This document shows, in pieces, positions 3,990-64,000 of a DNA stretch of 64,000 nt. The stretch comes from a virus (Duplodnaviria; Caudoviricetes): IMG/VR virus record IMGVR_UViG_3300044856_000241, positions 128,001-192,000 of that record. The stretch is one strand, 5' to 3'. The notes below the pieces were generated by a model. It was not told the DNA's origin. It made no database searches and saw only the letters and a list, made by a program, of their open reading frames with translations. The stretch's first letter is position 1. Each line of letters starts with the position of its first letter. The position numbers and the translations under genes were made by a program.

Positions 3990-4445
3990 TCAACGCTCCC
4001 TTCTAATAAAATCATCGAACATATCTCTATACTGCTGTGGCAAATTGCTAATGAATACATTCATCAGTTTATTCTGATGTTCAAGTTCCTTCACTTCTCG
4101 ATCATAATTTTCCAACCGTTCATAAGTTCCTTTATCAATCATTCGGCGCATTTCGCTTCTTGTTGTACATGCCGGTTCACAATATCCTTCATAAACCATT
4201 TCGTCATCCAGATAAATCTGTTGCCACATTTTAATATCATAGCAACTATCGCTTACATACCAGACCATGTAATACTCCATTGCTTTTTCAAAAGAATCAA
4301 AATCTTTGTTCGTATACAATTCCCATGGCGCATCACCATGAGGTGCCTTAATATTTTCCGTTGCCTTTACAAACTTGTCCCATGTTTTATCATCATTAAT
4401 AAGTTCAATGTGATAATTAATCCGTAAATATTTCATGTTATCCAT
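3990..4445 (-). CDS. hypothetical protein
   Basis: ORF in tightly packed operon; start at ATG after SD. Confidence 0.7.
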   Translation of the reverse strand: MDNMKYLRINYHIELINDDKTWDKFVKATENIKAPHGDAPWELYTNKDFDSFEKAMEYYMVWYVSDSCYDIKMWQQIYLDDEMVYEGYCEPACTTRSEMRRMIDKGTYERLENYDREVKELEHQNKLMNVFISNLPQQYRDMFDDFIRRER

Positions 4446-4458
4446 CAAATCATCTCCA

Positions 4459-4893
4459 TTACATGGCATTTAATACTTTCGCCATTTGTCTGCATTTATT
4501 TGCTGCGTTTGAATATTTATCAAACATCTCCATTGCGGCAATGTGAATACCTGAAATATTATTACATCCCATCAGATAATTTTTGTTTGATATTTTCATA
4601 TCAATATCAGCAAATCTGTTTTTCATACATGCTTTCTGGATTTCTTCATCGTCATAATAGTGATGCGAATTATTAAATTTCTCTTTTTCTTTATCATGCA
4701 GTGATGATAATTCCCGGTGAGCTCGATCATAAAACATCATTTCATCTTTGTACCAGTCAAATGCCTGTTGTAATTCTGATTTCCGTGTTTTTAATTTATC
4801 TCTTGTGCCATCTGGAAACCTGAACACAACATAATCAACGCTGACGTGTTCAATATATTCTTTATCTCCATAGATGCTTATTGCTTTTCTCAT
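4459..4893 (-). CDS. hypothetical protein
   Basis: GAGGAG SD; operon context. Confidence 0.75.
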   Translation of the reverse strand: MRKAISIYGDKEYIEHVSVDYVVFRFPDGTRDKLKTRKSELQQAFDWYKDEMMFYDRAHRELSSLHDKEKEKFNNSHHYYDDEEIQKACMKNRFADIDMKISNKNYLMGCNNISGIHIAAMEMFDKYSNAANKCRQMAKVLNAM

Positions 4894-4908
4894 TTCACAT
4901 TCTCCTCT

Positions 4909-5217
4909 CTATAAACTTTTTAATTCATCATTAGAATATTTACTCCATTTACCAGTTGTCGCACCATTCATTCTTTCTTCAAAAGTTCTCTTTCGCATTC
5001 CATACATTTCTGTTGCGACTTTGTACATGTCGTATACAAGACCTTTTTTCGTATCAATAATCATAAAATCTTCTGGATTATTCACATTGTCTAATACATA
5101 TTGCATAAAATCTCTGAATGTAATTAGCTTGTTTGTGGTACACCATACAAGAATTTTGTTTTCATTTTTAGTATCTTTTGTTACAAATCTTACAAGTTGC
5201 ATTTGCATTTCCCTCAA
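4909..5217 (-). CDS. hypothetical protein
   Basis: ORF in operon; true start probably a few codons downstream. Confidence 0.7.
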   Translation of the reverse strand: MREMQMQLVRFVTKDTKNENKILVWCTTNKLITFRDFMQYVLDNVNNPEDFMIIDTKKGLVYDMYKVATEMYGMRKRTFEERMNGATTGKWSKYSNDELKSL

Positions 5218-5280
5218 TTTTAATAAGGCAGATACATTTCTGTACCTGCCTTATGTATTCTCTGCGTTAAAATTACAATT

Positions 5281-5472
5281 TCAACGACTCCATTCACCAA
5301 CTTTATTTCCGTTTATGTCCATAATGGAACCGCTTGTATGTCCTGCCTCTAACCTCTCACAGACATCTTCTAATACTCGTTTTAATTCAATCGCTTCCCA
5401 AAATTCACTTTCATCTCCTGTATCTGGATCACAAAATGCTGCGTTTCCTGTTTTGATTTCACATTTAAACAT
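5281..5472 (-). CDS. hypothetical phage protein
   Basis: MFKCEIKTGNAAF...IMDINGNKVGEW; GAGGTG SD. Confidence 0.75.
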   Translation of the reverse strand: MFKCEIKTGNAAFCDPDTGDESEFWEAIELKRVLEDVCERLEAGHTSGSIMDINGNKVGEWSR

Positions 5473-9391: not shown

Positions 9392-10504
9392 TTATTTTGC
9401 AATCTCTTCCGCAAGAATGTCATACACTTCTGCATTACTCTTTACTGGGAAGATTTTGCTTTCGTAGTACACTGCACCTTTACAGTTAGCCAACAGTTTT
9501 TCATTTACCTTTTCAATTCCAAAATTTGAATACAATTTCTTGATTGTCTGGAAGTTTCTCAAGATAAATGCACTCTTATCAGAACCAGACCAATGAAGCT
9601 TTTTCATCAGGCAAATGATATTCTCAAGCATTTCCCTGTTGTTTTCAGTCAATCTCATTATTGCTGAAGACGGTGTTACTTTGCCTACCGGATTATCAAG
9701 TAAATGATTTTCAGCAGAAATCTGGATATTGTACTTTTCAAACAATTCCTTAAAGTGTACATATTCCGGAACATTTGCCTTAATTCCTGCTCTGTACATA
9801 TCGTTTGCGGTCATATTCTTTTTACCTGATTTCTGACCTAAAAAGATTCGAGCTGCTTCAAGTTCATCACAGTCCAGAACTTCAACCAGAATTTTCATCT
9901 GTTCATCAGCAGGAAGCAACAGATTCATTTTGATAACTGCGATTACTCTGTGTGCTCCATCAGCTACAAACAGCATTTCGTTTACGACATACACTTTGAT
10001 CGGATCGAACTTCGCATTTTCAAAATTCTCTGCAATCTCCGTTGTCTTTGCATTGTCTGTATCTCTCTGCCAGTCCGGAATATTAATGTATGTCGGGTTA
10101 ATCTGGATGTATTTCTTTCCTGCAAATGAAAACATTGAATTAAATGCATTCTTAATTTCTGTTTTCATTTTCTGCTCGCTGTCTTTCCGTTTGCTTTCAA
10201 TCCATTTCTGTGTCAACTCCGGAGAAGTATAACGGATAAATCCATCTTTTCTACGCAATACTGATGTGAGTTTGCCTTCTGAATCCAGAAAATTGTAATC
10301 TGTTTCAAACATTTCAATCTCACCCTGTTTAATTTTCAAAATCATACAGATCTTTTTGAGATTTTCCGGAGATGGCTCATTCCGTTCCTGCTCATAGAAA
10401 CCAATCATCGTTTCAGAGATACCTGCTTTCTTTGCAAGCTGCGCCTGAGTTAATCCGTTCTCTTTTCTAATTTCTGCTAATTTCTTTCCATTGATTTTAC
10501 ACAT
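9392..10504 (-). CDS. XRE HTH fused to a ParB-like domain
   Basis: N-terminal IRKENGLTQAQLAKKAGIS HTH; WQRD...FDPIKV...VADGAHRV ParB-superfamily motif. Confidence 0.75.
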   Translation of the reverse strand: MCKINGKKLAEIRKENGLTQAQLAKKAGISETMIGFYEQERNEPSPENLKKICMILKIKQGEIEMFETDYNFLDSEGKLTSVLRRKDGFIRYTSPELTQKWIESKRKDSEQKMKTEIKNAFNSMFSFAGKKYIQINPTYINIPDWQRDTDNAKTTEIAENFENAKFDPIKVYVVNEMLFVADGAHRVIAVIKMNLLLPADEQMKILVEVLDCDELEAARIFLGQKSGKKNMTANDMYRAGIKANVPEYVHFKELFEKYNIQISAENHLLDNPVGKVTPSSAIMRLTENNREMLENIICLMKKLHWSGSDKSAFILRNFQTIKKLYSNFGIEKVNEKLLANCKGAVYYESKIFPVKSNAEVYDILAEEIAK

Positions 10505-28402: not shown

Positions 28403-28670
28403 GTGAGTTACCACAAACTATATAAGTTTGCGGTTTCTGTTAAATAGCTCACCAGACTAAGTTGTTAGAAATGGCAACTACGATATTTAGGTCATGATAC
28501 CCTCGGTTGACGCAACAGACCGTCGCTCTATCATACATATTTAAGTTAGGTCAGAGTAAGAACAGCCTTGTGATATGTATGCGAAAAGCTTTTATATCAT
28601 TGTCGAGTTGAAGTCGGAACAGCTGTGTGGTAACAGTACAGCAAAGTACGCATCACCTGCCATTTGGTAG
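28403..28670 (+). ncRNA. omegaRNA (HEARO) of the IscB element
   Basis: GTGAGTTA...TAGCTCAC-CAGACTAAG...CTACGAT...ATACCCTCGGTTGACGC...CATTGTCGAG segments directly upstream of iscB. Confidence 0.8.
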
Positions 28671-28695
28671 AGTATTTATAAGGAGGAACTTATTT

Positions 28696-29969
28696 ATGGT
28701 TTATGTGATTTCACAAGATAGTAAACCATTAATGCCCTGCAGTAATCCAATTGCAAGATTATTACTTAATCAAGGCAAAGCAAAAGTTAAGAGACGTGAG
28801 CCATTCACAATTAAATTGATTTATGAAACAACAGATTACACTCAAGACTTAACTCTTGGTGTAGATACTGGAAGCGGAACTATTGGTACTGCTGTAAGTA
28901 AAGACAATGGAGATATCGTCTATATGTCAGAAATTGCTGTAAGAAACGACATTACTGACAAAATGACACGAAGAGCAAAGTATCGCAGGAATAGACGAAA
29001 TCGTAAAACTCGTTACAGGAAAGTAAGATGGCTTAATCGTGCTAATTCTATACGAACCGATAGGTTTAGTCCTACAATGCAGAGCAAACTTCACAGCCAT
29101 GTAAAGGAGATAGAATACATTAAGTCTATTCTTCCGATCACAACAATGGCGTTTGAAGCAGGACAGTTTGACACGCACTTAATGAAAAATCCAATCTTGC
29201 TAACCCAAAAGTGAGACTATGGGGATACCAAAAAGGTGCTAATTATGGATTTGAAAATACTAAAGCAATGGTACTTAACAGAGATAATTACACCTGTCAG
29301 TGTTGTAAGGGTAAACACAAAGACAGTAAGCTGGAAGTGCATCACATAGTATTTCGTAGTCAATGTGGCTCTGATGAAGCGAGCAATCTTATTACTCTGT
29401 GTCATACCTGTCACAAAGACTTGCATAGTGGAAAGATTAATTTTAAATTGAAAGGCAAATTGAAAGGCAATCTTAAATATGCTACACAAATGAACTCTAT
29501 CCGTAAACAGCTTTTCAAATTATATCCAGATGCTATTGAAACTTTCGGATATGTAACAAAAGTAAACCGTTTGCATTTAGGCGTAGCCAAAGAACATTAT
29601 TATGATGCCTGTGTGATTGCAACACAAGGCAGTATATTTACCGTAAAATCTAATCTTTACAAAAAGAAATGTGTTTCTGATGGTGATTTTCAAAAGACTA
29701 AAGGTATTCGTTCTGAACAACCTATTGTTACAAATAAAATTTGTGGCTTTAGAAAATTTGATAAGGTTCGATATTTTGGGAATGATTACTTTATCAAAGG
29801 AAGAATGTCTACTGGATACACAATTCTTATGGATATTGACGGTAACAAAGTTGACTTTTCGGAGATGCCTAAGGGTTACAAAACACCAAAAATGATAAAT
29901 TTAAAAAGAGTGAAAGCTCGTTCCTCATGGATGGTCACGACGATAACAACTGTCCAAAATATAGTATGA
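28696..29969 (+). pseudogene. iscB: IscB RNA-guided endonuclease, split by a 1-nt frameshift near 29194
   Basis: PLMP, LGVDTG (RuvC-I), RRNRRNRKTRYR bridge helix, HNH (LEVHHI...NLITLCHTCH), HYYDAC (RuvC-III); ORFs 28627-29214 and 29211-29969 join if one base is restored. Confidence 0.88.
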
Positions 29970-33847: not shown

Positions 33848-34003
33848 ATGGAAGAAAATTATACGGAAATTCCAATGATTTCTTATGAAGATATGATTAA
33901 ACATATTTCAGAGAAACATAACATCCCAGAAGATACTGTTCAGACAGTATTAGATGCTGAAGCAGAATATCTGATGGAGCTTGGAATTATTGAAACTGAA
34001 TAA
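33848..34003 (+). CDS. small protein resembling HU N-terminal helices (51 aa, not in ORF track)
   Basis: EDMIKHISEKHNIPEDTVQTVLDAEAEYL. Confidence 0.55.
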   Translation: MEENYTEIPMISYEDMIKHISEKHNIPEDTVQTVLDAEAEYLMELGIIETE

Positions 34004-34011
34004 ATGAAGAA

Positions 34012-34375
34012 ACGTCACCAGTTATCAAGATATGCAAATCAAATTTTATGAGAGTTTGACCTACGGCTCAAGATGGCAGATTATAGATTATTTGCTGGGT
34101 AATCTACGCCAGTGCGCTCTGACAAATTCCCATCGGTTAAGACGAAAACGCCAGTACACATGGACGAATACAATATAAGGAAAAATTTTCGCAAACATGT
34201 ATCCACCTGCCTTTCCTAAATTTTTACAAACTTTGGAAAAACTGGTGACGTGAAGTGTAGAGAAATCTACGAGATAGATTATATCAAATTATAAAACTAA
34301 ATACAAAAAAATAAAGTGTGCGGTCAGACACCCAACCAGACTCTCATAATTCGTGATCCTGGTCGCACACTTTAT
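34012..34375 (+). ncRNA. large structured non-coding RNA, unassigned
   Basis: 12-bp stem 34012-23/34240-51; 17-bp stem 34311-27/34359-75 with G-U pairs; 13-bp loop-loop pairing 34046-58/34337-49; GAAA tetraloop hairpin 34257-70. Confidence 0.65.
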
Positions 34376-34506
34376 CTATATATTGGGCAATATCGCCCTA
34401 TTTATACATGAGGGATTTGGCGGCAGATACCCTCTTTTTTGATGTGAATGGAGTTAATAACTCGAACAAAAAGAAAAATTATTTGAGAAAAAGGAGTACA
34501 AAAATT

Positions 34507-63027: not shown

Positions 63028-64000
63028 TGTCAACCTATAATCAATATAGACGGAAGTTTAATATTACTTCTGATAATCAATCTATCGTTACGCCTACTAC
63101 TCTTGGTCAGAAATTAAAAGCAGAATCTGATCAAATGATGGAACGAACTTTGGATGCCGATTTACAATCTAAAGTTTGTTACATTTATGATTATTACCAT
63201 GATGACCAGCCTGATAAAAAAGATCATATGACTTATGAATACACGACTAAAACACGTATTGATGCGAAGTTTTTTATGAAAACTCATCAGTCACTAGATA
63301 AGGATCAGACTGAGTATTACTTACAATTCAAACCATCTCAGAAATTGGAATTCGTTCCTGGAGATGAGTTGTATTATTTTGAAACTGATTACCGAAGAAA
63401 ATTTTGGAGTGAATTTCCGATAGGTATGTATTGCGATATTGCTAACGAAAAAGGAGTCTATGAGAAATGGATCGTTGTTGGTAAGGAAATTTCTAATCAG
63501 TTTACAAAATATTTTGTATTGCCGGTTGATTACCGTTTACAGTGGATTGAACGTTCCGGAAGGGCAAAAATAAAACGTCAAATGTGGGGAACCACAAGGA
63601 GCCAAAGTTCGTATAATGTGTGCGCTTCATATCGGAAACGGTATGTCGAAAGTTTTCTAATTGCTGGAAACTCTCAGTATGTTATCGGTACAGTAAAGTG
63701 TGACAATCTGATAACTGGAGACAATCAGCAGCGAAGCTTCTTATTTAATAAGAAGAACGTTCAACGATCATGCGCCCAAGTGGGCTAATGGAAACCACCT
63801 AAGTCTTTTAAAAGATATGGTGTTGATATGCTCTGACCTTCATGGCGACATGGAGAAAATAAAATTATTACAATTTTATCTTTATTGAATTAACGACTCA
63901 ATAAAGTAACAATCAAAAAAAATGACACTATTGGTACGTATACAGATCGCTATATCACCAAACAAGATAATCAGCAAAAATTCAAACTTCCATTGAATCC
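63027..64000 (+). CDS. head closure/connector-like protein, exons 63027-63612 and 63925->64000
   Basis: Splicing gives ...RSQSS-Y-TIGTYTDRYITKQDNQQKFKLPLN, open to the window end. Confidence 0.7.
63613..63924 (+). ncRNA. group I self-splicing intron without homing endonuclease ORF
   Basis: P AATTGCTGGAAA, Q AATCAGCAG, R TCAACGATCA, S GATATGCTCT; exon ends in U, intron in G; P1 and P10 pairings; GNRA hairpins. Confidence 0.88.

Follow-up and report, generated by a model that had tools for sequence, protein, structure and literature searches.

The window analysed here is a stretch of 64,000 nucleotides, corresponding to bases 128001-192000 of a 203.6-kb IMG/VR virus record (IMGVR_UViG_3300044856_000241; a gut jumbo phage of ~204 kb). 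Around positions 34012-34375 every gene lies on the + strand: a beta-CASP nuclease, ClpP, a calcineurin-like phosphoesterase and a 51-aa ORF on the 5' side, and HU, a GIY-YIG endonuclease and a choline-binding amidase on the 3' side. The initial annotation described the intervening region as a gap without a credible ORF, occupied by one structured + strand RNA of ~365 nt that was possibly a new class of phage non-coding RNA. The repeats on which this proposal was built are all present in the sequence, namely a perfect 12-bp repeat (34012-23/34240-51), a 17-bp repeat with two G.U pairs on the + strand (34311-27/34359-75), a 13-bp repeat with one G.U pair (34046-58/34337-49), and the hairpins TAGATTATTT/GGGTAATCTA and GTAGA-GAAA-TCTAC. 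When 34004-34405 was subjected to dinucleotide shuffling, a perfect 12-bp inverted repeat was reached in 1 of 300 shuffles, and three repeats of at least 9 bp likewise in 1 of 300.

The gap between the phosphoesterase and HU genes measures 663 nt in the window, as against mostly ~130-310 nt in relatives, and none of 80 sister-phage loci examined around homologs of the phosphoesterase gene (45-89% identity) showed similarity to the region. We therefore regard it as an insertion relative to the sister phages, extending over 34004-34405 as judged from the gap size and the absence in those 80 loci; it is present once in the whole genome record. The hairpin and T-run found just 5' of HU (34411-34441, + strand) have an equivalent before HU in relatives that lack the element, and thus belong to the phage backbone, outside the insert. 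Throughout the phage group this G+C-rich hairpin keeps its position but not its sequence (equivalent sites in L002, L011, L014, L018, L042 and L052). The 51-aa ORF (33848-34003) has no homolog in the sister loci except for a weak 29% match in L040, and may have arrived together with the cassette described below. Five sister phages (L006-L010, ~4128-5310) carry a GIY-YIG endonuclease gene 3' of the phosphoesterase gene, followed by a second, 48%-identical copy of the C-terminal 50 residues of the phosphoesterase, an arrangement suggestive of an insertion of the homing-endonuclease or intron type that duplicated an exon end.

When 50 related virus records were searched for the region, a single match emerged, at a different locus. 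Pattern scans built from the blocks conserved between the window and this first homolog then yielded ~10 viral and ~25 metagenome copies, on gut phage contigs. No match to the region was found among INPHARED phages by blastn, nor in IMG/VR for an exact 18-mer of the loop of the 17-bp hairpin. The pattern scan of 185,579 representative prokaryote genomes contained no real copy; 21 pattern matches in bacterial genomes were put down to chance, the single best having an E of 8e-4 over 42 nt. The copies sort into six sequence groups, A to F. Group A contains the window copy; group B lies between a 164-aa ORF and a tail gene; groups C, D and E lie upstream of HU, with other upstream genes; and group F is one divergent copy. 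The module occupies at least three genomic contexts, and its orientation relative to the flanking genes is constant across copies.

On the minus strand the gap does contain a credible ORF. It spans 36 codons (34198..34091, with the stop codon at 34088-34090), encodes MFAKIFPYIVFVHVYWRFRLNRWEFVRAHWRRLPSK and is preceded by an extended Shine-Dalgarno (SD) sequence, GGAAAGGCAGGTGG (34203-34216, minus strand), located 4 nt 5' of the ATG. The SD is nearly invariant in our alignment A3 (GGAAAGGnAGGTG), and across homologs the start codon is found 4-7 nt downstream of the extended SD GGAAAGGnAGGTGA; the usual SD-start spacing is 4-9 nt. The ORF has 36-40 codons among homologs, with frame, start and stop kept in all intact copies; the exceptions are a TAG variant and copies disrupted by an insertion sequence (IS). 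In every group this frame reads ...VHxYWRFRLxRWExVxxHWRxLPxx-stop. The substitutions are codon-like (Arg CGU/AGA/CGA/CGC, Leu UUA/CUC/CUA, Tyr UAC/UAU), and dN/dS across the aligned homologs is ~0.1-0.47 (Nei-Gojobori), with dS of 0.17 for the closest pair, >0.5 between groups and up to >1.3. By these comparative measures, the 36-residue ORF is a conserved protein-coding gene under purifying selection. Two + strand ORFs were considered and rejected: one of 48 aa (34032-34178) has no SD and is not conserved, and one of 72 aa in group C is absent in the window.

In one group B lineage (L102:9301-9303; also L082, L167 and L179), codon 6 of the small ORF is TAG, where its sisters have TAC or TCC. 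Either the gene was knocked out recently or that phage may recode TAG.

The encoded peptide belongs to an existing protein family. All 11 aligned peptides matched the phrog_21154 HMM, with a best E of 5.6e-10; for P0002 the match had an E of 0.0034 over residues 9-35. A profile search of 1.84 billion representatives recovered 152 clusters at E<=0.001, mostly of 35-50 aa and all labelled 'hypothetical', that share the motif V-x-V-x-x-Y-x-R-x-R-x-x-x-x-E-x-V-x-x-H-x-R-x-x-P. AlphaFold2 predicted a four-strand beta meander for the peptide (pLDDT 83). It is very basic, rich in Trp and Arg, and has no transmembrane segment; the sole hydrophobic stretch, ~13 N-terminal residues in the window copy, is not conserved. 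No informative match for the peptide came from Pfam, a PDB sequence search, Foldseek against the PDB or the ESM Atlas, and a word search of 5.8 billion proteins did not find it. Proteins this short are seldom called as genes.

An unannotated family member in Stx-converting phages was revealed by tblastn: a 40-aa ORF (MSTYNLNDQFDREVHVNAYERIRHGNLEHVCEHYRSRPHR) between cI/orf22 and N (L222:2462-2584, equivalent to NC_000902.1 ~9581-9703, minus strand), which matches phrog_21154 with an E of 5.2e-8 and is followed by an intrinsic terminator. It is carried, again unannotated, by 234 complete RefSeq E. coli genomes. The deposited record NC_000902.1 annotates an overlapping ORF on the opposite strand instead. 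Another family member lies 3' of an HTH_3 repressor-like gene on a prophage-like contig.

The gene also appears to have its own promoter. On the minus strand, a -35 box TTGTAT (34306-34301) is separated by a 17-nt spacer ending in TGA from a -10 box TATAAT (34283-34278), and this geometry is shared: five divergent groups (A-E) have TT(G/T)nnn-17-TGnTAnnnT, then exactly 7 nt, then a hairpin whose sequence is specific to the group. In the window this is the 5'-terminal mRNA stem-loop GUAGA-UUUC-UCUAC (34257-34270, minus strand), which had been recorded from the opposite strand as a GAAA tetraloop hairpin. From the spacing, the transcription start is predicted at ~34270-34271. A simple consensus scan of the region called neither this promoter nor any terminator; the former was missed because the -35 box matches at only 3 of 6 positions, and we assign the promoter on its conserved extended -10 and fixed spacing. 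At the 3' end of the mRNA there is no canonical terminator, only the closing helix described below and a U-rich tail.

The message predicted from these boundaries is heavily folded. Folding of the region gave -131.9 kcal/mol (z -6.2) for the minus strand as against -105.8 kcal/mol (z -3.2) for the + strand, and for a group B homolog the antisense strand had a z of -6.05 compared with -3.1 for the other strand. The full-length message folded with a z of -5.4, with both the SD and the AUG paired. To assess individual helices we counted pairs in alignment A3 (17 sequences). The most informative is the 12-bp stem of the initial annotation, here called P1, in which the 5'-UTR segment ACGUCACCAGUUUUUCC (34235-34251, minus strand; containing the P1 5' arm at 34240-51 and the anti-SD UUUUUCC) pairs with the 3' end of the mRNA (34012-34023, minus strand), which is followed by the U-rich tail. 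Seven of its 10 pairs change on both sides among the six sequence groups, and 98% of cells are paired. Taken together, the four helices tested had 98.5% of cells paired, as against 41-48% with the partners slid, and the observed covariation score was reached by no shuffle. P1 is thus, on comparative grounds, a closure that joins the 5' UTR to the mRNA 3' end and is supported by covariation. The earlier suggestion of selection at the RNA level is borne out by these changes, and what was originally noticed is real both as sequence and as selected RNA structure; covariation among homologs was found for this stem, but those homologs do not lie in the phosphoesterase-HU interval of the 80 sister loci, the interval from which the initial annotation had proposed to collect them.

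Directly 3' of the P1 5' arm, the anti-SD UUUUCC pairs with GGAAAG of the SD. This helix is 99% paired, with one compensatory change and a U.G pair that exists on the minus strand only. When the 5' UTR was folded alone, UCA(C/U)C of the P1 arm together with UUUUUCC covered the whole SD, with local z values of -3.3 in group A (window), -5.3 in group C and -2.7 in group E. Since the P1 arm pairs with the SD in the isolated 5' UTR and with the 3' end in the full message, it has two alternative partners. A long anti-SD hairpin is found, too, in a distant member on a GC-rich bacterial contig (L227). Within the ORF, the hairpin GGCGUUUUCGUCU/AGAUGGGAA (34127-34152, minus strand; codons WRFRLxRWE) has 12 pairs, is 99.5% paired and contains 3-5 G.U pairs that exist on the minus strand only. 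Its Arg codons are invariant although dS is saturated elsewhere. The helices internal to the ORF are largely invariant, which may partly reflect constraint on the coding sequence. The stop codon is covered by a further hairpin (34084-34106, minus strand; UAGAUUAUUU/GGGUAAUCUA of the initial annotation), at which each group has a hairpin of different sequence. In the 3' UTR, the segment CAAACUCUCAUAA (34046-34058, minus strand), whose core ACUCUC is invariant, is complementary to the loop of the 17-bp hairpin, which lies 5' of the promoter.

These strand-specific pairs bear directly on the idea that 34012-34375 specifies an independent + strand non-coding RNA of ~365 nt, held together by a loop-loop pseudoknot and with a function of its own. 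The helices listed in its support are real, and their non-Watson-Crick pairs are indeed G.U on the + strand; the claim that all deviations are of this kind holds for those helices only, and fails for the 34127-34152 and anti-SD helices with their 3-5 minus-strand-only G.U pairs. The best-conserved helices would consequently have 3-5 A.C mismatches in a + strand RNA, which would also fold far more weakly. As every flanking gene is on the + strand, transcription of the region in the + sense is probable, with the terminator at 34411-41 downstream, and an antisense (+ strand) transcript may exist. However, the variation in the core is codon-like on the minus strand, and the supposed + strand RNA is largely the reverse complement of a minus-strand gene: both the strand and the non-coding nature were misassigned, the conserved core being a coding gene of the phrog_21154 family. 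The initial annotation saw no hallmarks of tmRNA, RNase P, SRP or group I/II introns, and nothing in Rfam 15 accounts for the region. No covariance model, in a set including ROOL, GOLLD, HEARO, group I/II introns, tmRNA, RNase P and SRP, matched at its gathering score or was accepted at E<=10; at that E value there were sub-threshold matches only, with 11.8-28.5 bits where 39-140 are required. We found no support for a new class of the ROOL/GOLLD type.

The one part of the initial proposal that lies apart from the gene is the 17-bp hairpin (34311-34375, to which we assign no strand), the loop of which (34337-49) is complementary to 34046-58. It is located 5' of the promoter and so is not part of the mRNA, which separates it from the conserved transcription unit with which it had been joined into a single RNA. 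The hairpin is terminator-like in both directions, with an A-run before it and, on the minus strand, U7 after it. Its stems covary among groups A, C and D, with U-rich tails following on the minus strand, and the complementarity between its loop and the 3' UTR is kept in the same three of the six groups, including a U-A to C-G swap. It is absent from groups B and E. The wobbles in the stem are mostly of the + strand type (~7 to 1, with + strand wobbles predominating in four groups), which would favour a + strand RNA; given the GC skew of the + strand this bias is suggestive only and is not significant, and the wobbles in the loop pairing are balanced between strands. With the hairpin and the pseudoknot missing from groups B and E as well, we consider an independent + strand non-coding RNA very unlikely.

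The hairpin could end either a small antisense-acting RNA or a + strand read-through transcript, and, together with the conserved loop complementarity, it is left unaccounted for by a model of the region as a coding module. A rival explanation is a module resembling type I toxin-antitoxin systems, in which the 36-aa peptide would be harmful. The RNA antitoxin would be the read-through transcript of the + strand or a small RNA with the 17-bp hairpin at its end, and its loop would kiss the ACUCUC hairpin in the mRNA 3' UTR. In favour of this, the mRNA combines SD/anti-SD pairing, a 5' stem-loop and 5'-3' closure, the features by which type I toxin mRNAs are defined (PMC8594479), and the loop complementarity has been kept through a compensatory swap in three groups. 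Moreover, all neighbours lie antisense to the cassette, so that a fully complementary + RNA is to be expected, and some lineages have lost the gene or carry it disrupted. Set against this, the peptide is basic and beta-structured with no hydrophobic helix; inspection by eye revealed no conserved promoter for a minus-strand small RNA 5' of the hairpin; and groups B and E have neither the hairpin nor the loop pairing. In addition, the members in Stx phages and in L223-226 are arranged operon-like after a repressor gene, with no evident antisense partner. We regard a full type I module as possible but unlikely.

A TnpB gene found inside the element raised the question of whether the region might be the RNA of an RNA-guided nuclease. 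In L119 the element is split by 1.8 kb carrying a 494-aa ORF of the TnpB family (P0001; NCBIfam guided_TnpB, 5e-23). The insert (L119:3688-5497, the same as L122; also in L141 and L157) is a 1,803-bp, TnpB-only IS of the IS200/IS605 type. In P0001 the RuvC motifs are present and the zinc-finger cysteines are replaced. In 24 gut phage loci whose flanks are otherwise unrelated, the IS has conserved ends of its own. Its insertion point follows TTTA(C), which here lies within the small ORF; 2 of the 24 related copies interrupt this ORF, and L141 has lost the 3' half of the element beside the IS. Given its own ends in unrelated flanks and its insertion inside the small ORF, we view the IS as an intruder. 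The same two observations led us to reject a TnpB omega-RNA or IStron reading, for which a scaffold adjoining the tnpB 3' end or the right end of the IS, and common to IS copies, would be expected; the region does not have this arrangement.

A broader form of this idea would make the region a miniature transposon, an IS200/IS605 remnant with an omega RNA, or an invertible segment between the 13-bp inverted repeats. The module is indeed an insertion relative to the sister phages and found in several contexts, it contains a TnpB gene in two relatives, and inverted repeats flank the promoter and ORF. However, the TnpB element is an independent 1.8-kb IS, the region is present in one copy only in the genome, neither target-site duplications nor a nearby recombinase gene are present, and selection at the protein level accounts for the conservation of the core. 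An element acting as DNA is the least probable of the explanations considered, and we give it hardly any weight.

Other mobile or structured features are present elsewhere in the window. A HEARO (IscB-type omega) RNA is located 5.5 kb upstream (28403-28618; Rfam, 88.6 bits), followed by two consecutive + strand ORFs (28627-29214 and 29211-29969) that look like one IscB-like gene split in two. A group I intron (63603-63855; Rfam, 67.8 bits) lies at the window end, and there are four tRNA genes (30084, 41000, 41177 and 52383).

The explanation we favour, with a probability of roughly 70%, is that the region is a coding module whose mRNA has an architecture like that of type I toxins, and not a new class of non-coding RNA. 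It would be a compact, self-contained 'moron' cassette, flanked by a small ORF and the HU gene and encoded on the minus strand, opposite to all surrounding genes. The extended -10 promoter would start transcription at ~34270, right at the 5'-terminal stem-loop, to give an mRNA of ~260 nt encoding the 36-residue, basic, Trp/Arg-rich beta-protein of the phrog_21154 family. Translation would be kept off in two ways. First, the 5'-UTR segment UCACCAGUUUUUCC would pair with the entire extended SD. Second, in the complete transcript, this segment and the 3' end would form the 12-bp stem, so that the message becomes a single closed domain and both SD and AUG stay paired. There is also one conserved hairpin within the ORF and another at the stop codon. 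The ORF and its purifying selection, the geometry of the promoter and 5' hairpin, the covariation of the closing helix and the conservation of the SD/anti-SD pairing are the comparative observations that carry this model. That the folds gate translation, or stabilise the mRNA, we infer from them, and cassette expression may be early or dependent on the host RNA polymerase, and silenced by + strand read-through. Because one lineage has a TAG at codon 6 and two have an IS in the ORF, the gene is dispensable.

A more far-reaching version of this model would describe the family, which also occurs in the immunity region of Stx phages, as a hitherto unrecognised RNA-gated module, in which basic beta-peptides of ~37 aa are silenced by the anti-SD and the 5'-3' closure, and to which the jumbo phages add a kissing control, making it a non-membrane system of the type I toxin-antitoxin or exclusion kind. 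If true, the kissing partner of the 3'-UTR hairpin would be the loop of the terminator hairpin or the antisense read-through RNA. We offer this version tentatively and think it rather improbable as a whole.

These results remove a false candidate for a new non-coding RNA class, and illustrate how a very small antisense gene can be mistaken for a structured non-coding RNA when its mRNA is heavily folded. They also bring to light a common family of small phage proteins, with 152 clusters ranging from gut Firmicute jumbo phages to Stx-converting coliphages, and the predicted folds suggest that its expression is under tight RNA-level gating. Genes placed beside a repressor, or present as antisense morons, frequently act in exclusion, defence or host takeover, and the family is therefore a cheap and testable small-protein target.

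Finally, the region can be compared with known systems. It resembles the ROOL, GOLLD and HEARO/omega RNAs in being phage-borne, several hundred nt long and multi-helix, and in occurring in Firmicute phages; it differs from them in having no covariance-model match, a coding core and no associated IscB or TnpB. A second comparison is with type I toxin mRNAs such as hok/sok, AapA1/IsoA1 and Fst/RNAII. The key determinants of these messages are SD/anti-SD pairing, 5' stem-loops and 5'-3' long-distance interactions (T1TAdb, PMC8594479), and the cassette likewise has a short ORF (fewer than ~60 codons) served by a promoter of its own, a 5' stem-loop, a strong SD which, by prediction and comparative data, lies under an anti-SD, and a covarying helix between the 5' UTR and the 3' end; its moron-like, patchy distribution in mobile DNA is also similar. 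However, the toxins of most type I families are hydrophobic, membrane-active peptides, whereas the product here is a basic, Trp/Arg-rich beta-meander, and since it lacks a transmembrane segment the analogy covers the mRNA only. Type I systems also have an antisense RNA antitoxin that pairs with the toxin mRNA. Other phrog_21154 members sit in repressor operons. The third comparison is with phrog_21154 itself, as represented in Stx-converting phages such as VT2-Sakai (NC_000902): the HMM places both in the same family, with a shared motif and a length of 35-50 aa. The jumbo-phage subgroup is distinguished by its Trp-rich YWRFRLxRWE variant and its antisense orientation to the neighbouring genes. 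The closed, SD-sequestering mRNA likewise appears to be a feature of the jumbo-phage subgroup, whereas the Stx copy has the same orientation as cI, with a plain terminator after it.
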